DNA from: Alphaproteobacteria bacterium
Lineage (GTDB): Bacteria; Pseudomonadota; Alphaproteobacteria; SP197
Length of the DNA stretch: 64,000 nucleotides
Assembly (NCBI GenBank): GCA_964291265.2
Contig: OZ219747.1
Coordinates: 64,001 to 128,000, forward strand
Direction of reading: 5' to 3'
Under the pieces are notes generated by a model. That model made no database searches. It was not told the DNA's origin and saw only the letters and a program-made list of their open reading frames with translations. Both the position numbers and the translations under genes were made by a program. Numbering within the stretch: the stretch's first letter is position 1; the number at the start of each line of letters is the position of its first letter. Positions 10,664-15,802 of this stretch are shown here, piece after piece.

Positions 10664-10731
10664 TGTTGATGGCTGCATAGAACGGCGGGATTTCGGCGAT
10701 TTGCCGCGCTTTGTCAGGGTCGTGTTTCTTC

Positions 10732-10770
10732 CCTGTTGTCAGGTCCTATTGTCACGTCCTGTTGTCGTGG
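10732..10770 (+). repeat. Three 13-bp direct repeats CCT(G/A)TTGTC-N4
   Basis: cctgttgtcaggt cctattgtcacgt cctgttgtcgtgg; further copy at 10815 and an inverted core (acaatagg) at 15500. Confidence 0.7.
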
Positions 10771-11087
10771 TTTGAGTGTTCGGCTGGTTGTCTCCCCGAG
10801 CGCCGCCGTCTTTTCCTATTGTCGTTTTGGTCCGGTTCGGGTTCCGTCGACCTCTGCTTCGGTCTTGGTGACGGTTGCCGGGAGGGTTCCGGTTCCGAGG
10901 CACTCGCGGGATCGTCTGTCTTCCCTGTGGGCGGGTCGCGTTGTCCGGTCCCGGGGCGGCGTCTTTGCCGCCGCCCCGGGTGGATGCTAGATCGGCATCA
11001 AGAGAAAGAGCGATGCGATGCCGGGCGGAGTTGTGACGCCCCCCGGCGCAGCACCCGGACGAGCCGGTCACGGGGGACCGAACTCCC

Positions 11088-11618
11088 GTGTATTGTCGAG
11101 CCATTTTGCGTCCGGGTCCACCCCCGCTCTCGAGACGGACGGTGTGCACGACAGGACGACTGTTCAACTGCAGGCGGTGTCAGCGGCAGGTTGTTCTCTG
11201 CCGGTCGTGTGACCGGGGGCATGTGTATTGCTCCAAGGAGTGCAGGGAGCGGTCCCGGATCGAGCGGCGCCGCGCGTCGCGTCGTCGCTACCAGAGCACG
11301 CTGAAGGGCCGTGAGACGGGCCGTCACCGCCAGCGGCGTTACCGGCTCCGCAAGGCGGAGGAGGCGCGTGCGTTGAAGGCCAGGGCGGCGATGCTTGCCG
11401 AGATCATGGGCACGCAGACGTCTGCTGTGGTGCTGCTTGGCGACGTTCCGGCGGTGTCTGGAGACGCCGGTTCTGAAGAAATCGTTACGGACCACCCTTC
11501 CCGACTGCTGCCGACCTCCCTACCTGCGGTTGTGAAGGCGCAAGAGCGACGCGAATCGCCGCTTCGGTGCGCCAGATGCGGACGGGTCGTGACGCATGTG
11601 GTGCTGAGGGACCCGTGA
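11088..11618 (+). CDS. Cys-rich (Zn-finger-like) basic hypothetical protein upstream of istA (likely start GTG 11142)
   Basis: CRRC...CRSCDRGHVYCSKEC, Arg-rich helix, C-terminal CARCG. Confidence 0.6.
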   Translation: MYCRAILRPGPPPLSRRTVCTTGRLFNCRRCQRQVVLCRSCDRGHVYCSKECRERSRIERRRASRRRYQSTLKGRETGRHRQRRYRLRKAEEARALKARAAMLAEIMGTQTSAVVLLGDVPAVSGDAGSEEIVTDHPSRLLPTSLPAVVKAQERRESPLRCARCGRVVTHVVLRDP

Positions 11619-11650
11619 TGCGGCGTTGAGGAACCAAAGGGAGGGAGTTC

Positions 11651-13842: not shown

Positions 13843-14722
13843 ACCCCGCCGCGTCGACTTCGACGCCGTCAAGCGCATGCCGTTCGAACGCATCGCCGCC
13901 GACTGGGGATACGTCCGCGACGAACAGGCCTCGACACGCGCCAACCCCGTCCTGTGCGCACCCGGCCTGCCGAAGCTCGTCACGAAGTGCCTCAACAACG
14001 GACACTGGGTCTACTTCAACACCCAGAACGATGAAGACAACGGAACCGTCATCGACTTCATGCTCAACCGCGGACTGGCCTTCGCCGACATCTGCACCCG
14101 CTTCGCAGCACCCGACGCCGCGCCACGCGACTTCCGCAGCCTCTGGGCCGCGGCAACGCCCGATGCGGCCCCGGACTGGCTCACCGGGCGCGGCATCCTC
14201 CCGGAGACCCTCGACACCTGCCGCCCCCTGGTCCGCCGCGACCACAACGGACGCGTCCTCTTCGCCCATCGCAACAGGAAGCGAAAGCTCACCGGCTTCG
14301 AGATCGGTCCCCCCGACGGACCGAAACGCTTCGCCACCGGTGGAACCCGAAGCCTGTTCGCCGTCCGCGCCGGAACCGCCGCGGACCTCGAGGCCCTCGT
14401 CATCACCGAAAGCGCCGTCGACGCCCTCAGCCTGGCCCAGATCGACCAATGTCCCCCCAGCCACGCCTTCCTCTCCACCGCCGGGGCACCCTCGCGAAGA
14501 CAGCACGAACAGATCAGCCTCGCCGCAAGCAGCCTGCCCAACGTCAGGACCATCGTCCTCGCCCAGGACCACGACGAGGCCGGAGAGCGACAGGCCGAAA
14601 CCCTGCGCAAAAAGATGAAGCTCCCCTCCCACGTCTCGTTCCACAGACGCAGACCGCCGGAAAACGCCGACTGGAACGACGTCGTCAACGCCAGGACCAA
14701 AGAACCACAAGCGAGATCATGA
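13829..14722 (+). CDS. DUF3991/TOPRIM domain (primase-like) protein
   Basis: GTG start overlapping istB; DNGTVIDF, WLTGRGI, LVITESAVDALS (TOPRIM E), LAQDHDEAG (DxD), DWND. Confidence 0.75.
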   Translation: MKPDKPRRVDFDAVKRMPFERIAADWGYVRDEQASTRANPVLCAPGLPKLVTKCLNNGHWVYFNTQNDEDNGTVIDFMLNRGLAFADICTRFAAPDAAPRDFRSLWAAATPDAAPDWLTGRGILPETLDTCRPLVRRDHNGRVLFAHRNRKRKLTGFEIGPPDGPKRFATGGTRSLFAVRAGTAADLEALVITESAVDALSLAQIDQCPPSHAFLSTAGAPSRRQHEQISLAASSLPNVRTIVLAQDHDEAGERQAETLRKKMKLPSHVSFHRRRPPENADWNDVVNARTKEPQARS

Positions 14723-15039
14723 CCACGTCCGTCACAAGGAGACCACTCATGCCCCTCACGCCCGCCGAAAAGCAGCGGCGATACCGGGAACGGCGCAAGG
14801 CCGGCATCCCTCCCGTCCACACCCCAAAGCACCGTGACCGGCGCTCGCGACCGCAACGCTGGAACGACGCCGTGGCCGAACTGCGCGCCCTGCAGGACGA
14901 ATGGCGTGACCACCTCGACAGCATCCCCGAAAGCCTCCGTGACACGCCTTACGGAGAACGCCTGCAGAGCGTCGCCGATGCCGACATCGAGGCCCTCGAG
15001 GACATCGAACCGCCACGCGGCTACGGAAGGGATACGTGA
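14719..15039 (+). CDS. Small hypothetical protein (basic N-terminus, helical), plasmid-type
   Basis: ATGA overlap with the TOPRIM gene; LTPAEKQRRYRERR...RPQRWNDAVAEL...EPPRGYGRD. Confidence 0.65.
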   Translation: MTTSVTRRPLMPLTPAEKQRRYRERRKAGIPPVHTPKHRDRRSRPQRWNDAVAELRALQDEWRDHLDSIPESLRDTPYGERLQSVADADIEALEDIEPPRGYGRDT

Positions 15040-15144
15040 TCCCGCAAGACCCTTGAACGCGGTCACGCGTTACCATCCAGGAATGAGAACGTCTCACCCC
15101 GACGCGCTTCTCAGCCTCCCCGGGAAACCCCCGGGCCGTCCAAA

Positions 15145-15485
15145 CGACACCGCATCACGAGACTGCCGCAGCCTCTGAGCCGCAGAAACGCCCGATCCGC
15201 CGCCGGGCTGGCTCACAGGTCGCAGCATCCGCCCGAAAACACTCAACGCCTGCCGCACCCTGCGCCGCCGCAACCGCAACGCACACAGCCTCTTCGCCCA
15301 GCGCAACAGAAACCGTAAGCTCTCCAGCCTCAAGATCGTCCCGCCCGACGAACCACGACGAGGCCGGAAAACGCCAGAACGAGACCACGCGCAAAGATTC
15401 TGAAGCTCCCCTCCCACATCACATTCCACAAACGCCGAACGCCAGAAAACGCCGACTGGAACGACATCGTCAACGTCAATGCAAG
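15145..15485 (+). pseudogene. Degenerate, internally deleted duplicate of the TOPRIM gene
   Basis: Aligns to 14113-14325 and 14567-14690; premature stop tgg->tga; many G->A changes. Confidence 0.85.
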
Positions 15486-15802
15486 ACCAATGGGATCCAA
15501 CAATAGGCAGAAAACAAAGACCGGGCGGACCTTCGTCCAATGCCGCACGTTCTCCTACCGTGGTCACCCACTCACACGATCAGCGCCCAAAAGAGCGGTT
15601 CTCCGCCAATATCCCGCCGTTCTAAATCGCCGCCGACAGCTGATCGAAGCATCCCGGCTTCGCCGGCCCCATCCGGCCCTTCCGTCCCGAGGGGCACGGG
15701 GAATCTCGTGCCGGCTGCTTCCCGTGTGGGGATGCGCGGTCCGGCCTCACCACATCCCTTGACCGTCGAGGCCCGGGTGAGATGCCTCCCCGGTACCGGA
15801 AG

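Follow-up and report, generated by a model that had tools for sequence, protein, structure and literature searches.

An IS21-family insertion sequence with a primase-fold gene in its third-gene slot, and an SSB-tail-like protein in the same slot of primase-less relatives

The IS21 section of PMC11208146 describes two proteins only, and movement of IS21 elements by copy-out/paste-in has been proposed (PMC11208146; 10.1101/2023.06.07.543989; PMC9330008). The element analysed here occupies positions 10664–15638 (4975 bp) of a 64,000-nucleotide stretch of an alphaproteobacterial genome (contig OZ219747.1; hereafter the window), and its core is that of a genuine IS21 member. As for IS21 and IS5376, it has TG...CA ends, a 5–7-bp target duplication, a DDE transposase IstA (NF033546) and a coupled IstB, but it differs from IS21 in its size of 5.0–5.3 kb, in three additional open reading frames (ORFs), and in a conserved gene with a primase fold located behind istB, in a position referred to here as the third-gene slot. 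A layout of the same kind, with a Cys-rich ORF followed by a DDE transposase, an AAA ATPase and a third gene, is present in Tn6049 of Cupriavidus metallidurans CH34. However, the IS481-type transposase and GspA/ExeA-like ATPase of Tn6049 belong to classes unlike those of the window element, a primase is absent, and no role is given for the third gene in the Tn6049 text of PMC2864759 and PMC4739549. Plasmids encode DUF3991-TOPRIM proteins with the same two-domain composition, either as stand-alone genes in trb/virB regions or fused to MobV, MobP or MobQ relaxases, and these are 26–38% identical to the protein described here, which instead resides inside an insertion sequence (IS) without relaxase and forms its own clade; primase activity of the plasmid proteins is an annotation in the literature found. 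For IS elements that form circles, a primase-type protein, the PrimPol-helicase IEE, has been suggested to function during copy-out (10.1101/2023.06.07.543989), but IEE has an archaeo-eukaryotic primase (AEP) fold, is encoded outside the IS and promotes IS loss, whereas here a TOPRIM fold is encoded inside the element. No published description of an IS21 element with a TOPRIM/DUF3991 gene, or with a third gene resembling the tail of SSB, the protein that binds single-stranded DNA, was found in a search that left supplementary files, most subscription papers and ISfinder/TnCentral outside its range. New here is the SSB-tail-like protein in the third-gene slot of primase-less relatives.

The TOPRIM gene (13829–14722, 297 amino acids (aa)) overlaps the end of istB by 14 nt, and comparison across genomes indicates that it is a fixed, selected and co-evolving gene of this IS21 lineage. 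When genomes were scanned with a TOPRIM alignment, the best 80 of 246 matches represented 76 loci; istB lies directly upstream in 62 of the 67 close loci, the remaining five being N-terminally cut fragments, while neither istA nor istB accompanies any of the nine distant loci (34–37% identity). The sequence-only reading of the window had proposed that istAB followed by TOPRIM within the same inverted repeats should be sought elsewhere, and had named a one-off capture, with the closest istAB relatives never carrying the gene, as the outcome that would speak against it. The arrangement recurs in nine other element families, eight of them multi-copy and one single copy, with IstA 49–81% identical, and the gene is therefore not a one-off capture. 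A reverse comparison starting from IstB, in five of the genomes picked for having TOPRIM, gave 17 matches, each of which coincides with a TOPRIM locus. Ten IstA matches were obtained in 40 relatives, eight with TOPRIM whole or cut, one with a truncated istA, and one (47%) without TOPRIM. Median dN/dS values, obtained by a simple count without correction for GC, are 0.45 for TOPRIM (66 pairs), 0.40 for istA (66 pairs) and 0.43 for istB (91 pairs), with 0.19 and 0.21 for TOPRIM in the closest pairs. The trees of 10 elements have five of seven splits in common in each comparison and distance correlations of r 0.89–0.94; TOPRIM distances correlate with those of IstA at r 0.89 and of IstB at r 0.91, values reached in 0 of 5000 permutations. 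For TOPRIM, the dN/dS and congruence analyses exclude two loci (L033 and L064), where the matched segment ran through the stop codon. The TOPRIM gene has thus long travelled with istAB, under purifying selection of similar strength.

Primase-less relatives were collected by an IstA scan of metagenomes, from which the best 80 of 592 loci (41–51% identity) were retained. At least 300 bases are present behind a complete istB in 57 of the 80, and this space usually begins, right at the istB stop, with a helical, acidic protein of about 70 aa. A profile of the family matches 44 of the 56 primase-less loci with enough sequence, none of the 82 loci selected by TOPRIM, and nothing in the host genome, which suggests that the slot holds one or the other and not both. 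The C-terminus is Phe in 35 of 42 of these proteins and Pro-Phe in 24, and some end in FDDDIPF; for comparison, 42 of 2303 long host ORFs end in Phe and three in Pro-Phe, and the SSB of the host itself ends in DFDDGIPF. The SSB tail DDDIPF is described as a docking site for DnaG, the chi subunit of Pol III, RecQ, RecO and ExoI, all through its last Phe (PMC3632105), and by this resemblance the small protein would recruit host replication proteins. The ~70-aa proteins are kin, and their end-residue counts are accordingly not independent. A Pfam scan of three members returned no family. The adaptor type is also present in cultured strains, with records from Cupriavidus, Mesorhizobium and Aromatoleum. 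That IS21 normally carries only istA and istB, as the sequence-only reading took for granted, does not hold in this subfamily, where 72 of the 80 primase-less relatives have a zinc-finger ORF and most have a small third gene. In a few loci, the slot is occupied by two other small families, and in one by a helix-turn-helix-like protein (L159).

A second element of the host genome, 5.16 kb long with TA...CA ends, shows the order ORF, rve transposase, AAA_22 ATPase, AAA_25 (helicase-like) and DUF3991-TOPRIM. It is represented by C2:47062–52221 (L190) and by copies near 460796, 3192044 and 4052073; four copies are full with 5-bp duplications, and two more are split by IS21. Relatives that lack the AAA_25 gene were found in G002, G005 (15 matches), G009, G010, G013 and L086. 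The closest plasmid relative, with an ATPase 53% identical, is locus L212, which we take as Tn6049, and the gene behind the Tn6049 ATPase belongs to the ~70-aa acidic-tail family (E 2e-19). The Tn6049-type adaptor and the second-family TOPRIM hold the same position, and hence the either-or arrangement applies to two unrelated transposase/ATPase systems. A tree built from 47 proteins places the TOPRIM proteins of IS21 and of the second family in separate clades (SH-aLRT 100 for the IS21 clade) with plasmid proteins beside each. A single origin of the two groups was rejected by an approximately unbiased (AU) test (p-AU 0.0003), for which quick trees of 46 rows were used and plasmid_L193 was omitted because of its long branch. 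These trees argue for independent capture of TOPRIM by the IS21 lineage and by Tn6049-like elements. Among 401 genomes of the class, with at most six candidates scored per genome, the profile of the second-family TOPRIM at E 1e-15 found its own genome only.

These observations bear on whether the TOPRIM gene is passenger cargo, acquired from a plasmid on one occasion and retained for an advantage that has nothing to do with transposition. Most IS21 elements of the subfamily lack the gene, the small ORF downstream of it in the same element is real cargo, and relics of TOPRIM mark this end of the element as plastic, all of which fit such a history. Against this, the strength of selection equals that on istA and istB, the trees are congruent, the position is fixed and coupled, and two independent captures entered one slot, each exclusive with the small protein; in addition, true cargo is patchy and is broken more often (3/32 copies for the small ORF, compared with 1/32 for TOPRIM). 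We therefore regard a passenger role as very unlikely. More broadly, and with some hesitation, we propose that ATPase-assisted DDE transposons may share a third-gene slot for a replication step, filled either by an SSB-tail mimic, which would bring in the host primosome, or by an own primase that was captured at least twice from conjugative plasmids, once together with a helicase-like ATPase.

The relatives of the IS21 TOPRIM with a characterised context are plasmid conjugation proteins, and the protein itself appears to be of plasmid type. It matches 449 plasmid records, and in 12 plasmid regions that were inspected the gene belongs to a trb/virB region, neighbours a relaxase or is fused to one, or lies amid unannotated genes. 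Long fused relatives (18 chosen from 47 long proteins) contain a relaxase domain in five cases and a transposase in none. In conjugation, such primases make transferred single-stranded DNA double-stranded again, and by analogy a second-strand role in conjugation may be expected for the plasmid DUF3991-TOPRIM proteins. The family is large, with 3158 clusters at E 1e-10 or better. As for the family label, the sequence-only reading of the window protein as DUF3991/TOPRIM stands for the TOPRIM part, where Toprim_2 (PF13155, E 3.5e-13) and Toprim_3 (PF13362) pass, but DUF3991 (PF13154) scores 20.7 bits, below its cut-off of 24.5; some close relatives are listed with PF13154. A PF13155 scan over 401 genomes of the phylum was uninformative, as it matches host DnaG.

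The structure model of the TOPRIM protein (pLDDT 91.9) has the primase domains of T7 gp4, DnaG and Twinkle as its top structural matches, and predicts a T7/DnaG-type primase fold in which the main acidic residues are kept. Residues 98–292 superimpose on the T7 primase fragment with Z 15.5 and a root-mean-square deviation of 3.2 over 180 aligned residues, and on DnaG with Z 11.7; the profile matches T7 primase (1nui) at E 7e-10, and the layout of the acidic motifs is alike. The window protein has all of these residues (Glu194, Asp198, Asp247, Asp249 and Asp281), and in close relatives of 52–80% identity Glu194 is present in 30/30, Asp247 and Asp249 in 29/30, and Asp281 in 28/30, while the basic residues Arg121, Arg167 and Arg174 are invariant (30/30). 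Identity to T7 gp4 and DnaG is 13–22%, and the protein differs from them in that it lacks a helicase or helicase-binding domain as well as conserved zinc ligands and is changed at two basic positions. In the second family, the Glu, Asp and DxD residues are kept in 118–119 of 119 TOPRIM hits, which were taken irrespective of genomic context. Prediction of a complex of TOPRIM with IstA(1–460) and IstB (scores of 0.00, 0.38 and 0.00 in three runs) gave no answer and is used neither way.

We lean towards a role of the TOPRIM protein as the primase for second-strand synthesis on the copied-out element, where it would replace the host-recruiting adaptor. In the copy-out/paste-in model (PMC11208146; 10.1101/2023.06.07.543989), IstA would cut one end of the element and join it to the other end. 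According to the published model, the 3'-OH of the flank would then prime synthesis over the element, with displacement of one strand. The flank 3'-OH would prime one strand, and the displaced strand should need a new primer; most relatives would at this point recruit host proteins via the SSB-tail-like product, and the present lineage would use its own primase. Finally, IstA and IstB would insert the circle, giving the 5–7-bp duplications that are observed. For the copy-out of IS911, a need for host DnaG has been reported. We infer both the primase activity and the step at which it would be used. A self-priming replicative transposon, the first of the two options raised by the sequence-only reading, is the best reading, and it gains comparative support from the apparent slot swap with the SSB-tail-like protein.

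Several observations weigh against second-strand priming by the element's own enzyme. Primase-less IS21 relatives are widespread, and TOPRIM occurs in none of the 80 loci selected by IstA. The host has intact dnaG and priA genes, so that there is no gap to fill, and compensation for an absent host primase was rejected. No end-to-end junction of the element is present in the genome, and none is listed in the contigs of three runs (X1, X2 and X3), contigs being an assembly form that drops rare forms. The SSB-tail interpretation derives from sequence likeness within a set of kin proteins, and DUF3991 was encountered in the literature as table entries only. In the protein itself, no conserved cysteines that could act as zinc ligands are seen in the alignment of the N-terminal 92 residues. 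The second acidic residue, Asp198, is Asp in 14 and Asn in 16 of 30 close relatives. Lys122 and Arg124 are important residues of the T7 primase, and the corresponding positions are Glu158 and Gly160. The last two points, and the replacement of a non-enzyme in the same slot, would be expected if TOPRIM were a non-catalytic accessory that, like the small protein in whose place it stands, assists the loading of replication proteins of the host, by binding to the transpososome or to the displaced single strand. This is the main rival, but an unlikely one, given that Glu194, Asp247, Asp249 and Asp281 are near-invariant over 52–80% identity and that the second-family hits have retained their acidic residues almost without exception.

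If second-strand priming by TOPRIM is correct, the elements would be insertion sequences that prime themselves and depend less on replication restart by the host. For IS21, copy-out itself is termed "proposed" in PMC11208146. With an own primase and an SSB-tail-like adaptor as alternative occupants of one slot, the way in which the second strand of copied-out IS21 is primed becomes directly testable by a single-gene swap. For a self-priming element, passage between hosts could also be easier and expansion rapid, and copies range from ~3 to ~37 between runs. Furthermore, the slot suggests a function for the large and uncharacterised DUF3991-TOPRIM family.

The window element is an active, many-copy IS21. 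At an identity of at least 94%, the genome contains 44 left and 38 right ends, and 32 copies are uninterrupted. In these, istA, istB and the Cys-rich ORF are full-length in 32/32, TOPRIM in 31/32 and the small ORF in 29/32, and the target duplication is 5 bp in 22 copies, 6 bp in four, 7 bp in one, and missing in five. Contigs of X2 and X3 join 10658/10660 to 15639/15641 and skip 4980 bases, which corresponds to the element plus one duplication, and therefore an empty site exists. The ratio of element to flank depth is ~35–37 in X1, ~20 in X2 and ~3–4 in X3 (one study, with contig depth as a rough measure), and the X1 value fits ~37 chromosomal TOPRIM copies. This is relevant for the second option of the sequence-only reading, an excised circle that replicates or is mobilised. 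A primase for horizontal spread would allow such a circle to replicate by itself, or make it double-stranded again once a helper plasmid has transferred it, and could explain why the TOPRIM relatives are conjugation proteins, why the element family occurs in several host groups (by source records), and why a conserved hairpin pair, which could serve as a single-strand origin, is present upstream of the zinc-finger ORF. However, the X1 depth equals the chromosomal copy number, no circle joint is listed, the hairpin occurs also in primase-less IS21, and scans of the five ORFs with Pfam and NCBIfam, which did not extend to a search for oriT, revealed no relaxase or Rep family. The circle option is hence not supported, and we consider horizontal spread the least probable of the explanations.

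In contrast to IS21, no target immunity is visible, since at least four copies have inserted within another copy, a number not below the chance expectation. Nested copies are found at C2:295923–308929, 4058043–4075257, 4237410–4258495 and 4144635–4152391, and one outer duplication encloses two element copies together with 5 kb of other mobile DNA. Thirty of the 32 uninterrupted copies measure 5319–5347 bp because, close to their right end, they contain a tandem duplication of ~350 bp, which the window copy and one other do without (window 14884–15263). Orientation relative to replication shows no bias (15 versus 16 copies).

At fourfold-degenerate sites, the strand skew of the element is +0.39 for the first ORF and declines to −0.64 for TOPRIM, all on one coding strand. 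Such a gradient would be expected if both ends serve as starting points for inward copying and one strand is displaced as a single strand. Elements of this genome that lack the primase show the skew too, as do outgroup IS21 in weaker form, so that it does not point to the primase; it was rejected as primase-specific evidence and therefore supports replicative movement only. Mu-like (Shapiro) cointegrate transposition, with the primase acting on the lagging strand at forks, would fit the gradient as well, and IstA and IstB resemble MuA and MuB (PMC11208146). The helicase-like AAA_25 gene that the second family adds, and the one locus where two direct copies lie in one outer duplication (C2:4237410–4258495), point in the same direction. 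Yet a clean single insertion flanked by a duplication is seen for 27 of the 32 simple copies, no resolvase was detected when the five ORFs were scanned with Pfam and NCBIfam, and the inner flanks at the two-copy locus mismatch each other, where a cointegrate would need a match. Cointegrate formation is thus highly improbable and, as with the circle and cargo explanations, fits worse than second-strand priming of a copied-out element. Many insertion sequences in the genome have a G+T-rich left end and an A+C-rich right end on the same strand, and it is possible that this asymmetry is a general footprint of replicative transposition.

The boundaries and gene order given by the sequence-only reading are confirmed. 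The left (10664–10712) and right (15590–15638, reverse strand) terminal inverted repeats are imperfect, with 34 of 49 bases identical, and start with TG and end with CA, as is common to the relatives too. They are flanked by GCTGA at 10659–10663 and 15639–15643, and identical 5-mers at this spacing occur at 0.17% of window positions. An ungapped scan of the ends for repeated transposase-binding units (L1/L2, R1/R2) gave at best 10–11 matches in 18 bases. The left duplication includes the TGA stop codon of a SnoaL-like plus flavin monooxygenase (FMO) gene (8882–10663), and the insertion directly after this stop, noted before, is real. The FMO gene stays intact because its stop codon lies in the duplication, and the position requires no special explanation; targeting of stop codons or FMO genes was rejected, since 22 five-base target sites have no consensus.

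All ORFs of the element are on the forward strand. IstA (11651–13144, 497 aa) scores 222.6 bits with NF033546 (cut-off 160), passes HTH_23 and PF22483, and has its DDE triad at Asp124, Asp187 and Glu233, which is invariant in 38 sequences. IstB (13141–13842, 233 aa), an AAA+ helper ATPase with Walker A and B motifs, scores 172 bits with PF01695 (cut-off 24.1, E 2e-50) and 192 bits with NF038214, slightly below the cut-off of 200. The translational overlap that had been suggested for the last four genes applies to istA/istB, which share 4 nt (ATGA), and to istB/TOPRIM. It is uncertain for the small basic ORF, where the first ATG at 14719 (106 aa) overlaps the TOPRIM stop but the second at 14749 (14749–15039, 96 aa), with an AGGAG ribosome site of its own, is the likelier start.

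The small ORF is lineage-specific cargo, with a clear match in one of 10 related element families and one weak partial match in addition. A 1978-bp repeat of the genome (C2:2591488–2596612, 2668813–2670790 and 3032854–3034831) contains a relative 78% identical to the small ORF and is its likely source. Downstream, at 15145–15478, parts of the TOPRIM gene are present a second time as a degenerate relic with internal deletion, in which 15145–15354 is 80% identical to 14113–14322, and ~15335–15478 is 82–88% identical to 14552–14693.

The first ORF (11088–11618, 176 aa) is basic, Cys-rich and zinc-finger-like, with a sub-threshold match to zf-MYND. Its median dN/dS is 0.54, and its frequency in primase-less relatives shows that it predates capture of the primase. 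The hairpin pair on its 5' side (11010–11085) is a candidate operator, RNA element or single-strand priming signal; it is kept in 10 aligned elements, with double-sided changes in 2 of 20 pairs, and has no match in Rfam at E up to 1. Of 84 primase-less IS21 loci, two share the first hairpin of the pair (E<0.01). A perfect hairpin at 10950–10980 was rejected as a conserved priming signal, as it is found in 2 of 11 elements and in 10 of 50 outgroup loci.

Beyond the element, one relative adjoins repeats that resemble a CRISPR array (L090:2760–2860). In the window, two tandem ORFs on the reverse strand (17192–18473) are presumably DNA polymerase III epsilon-like exonucleases, as judged from the motifs VVLDTETTGL and IVLDTETTGL, and at 18869–19884 there is a gene pair that we take to resemble an antitoxin and a RES-domain toxin.

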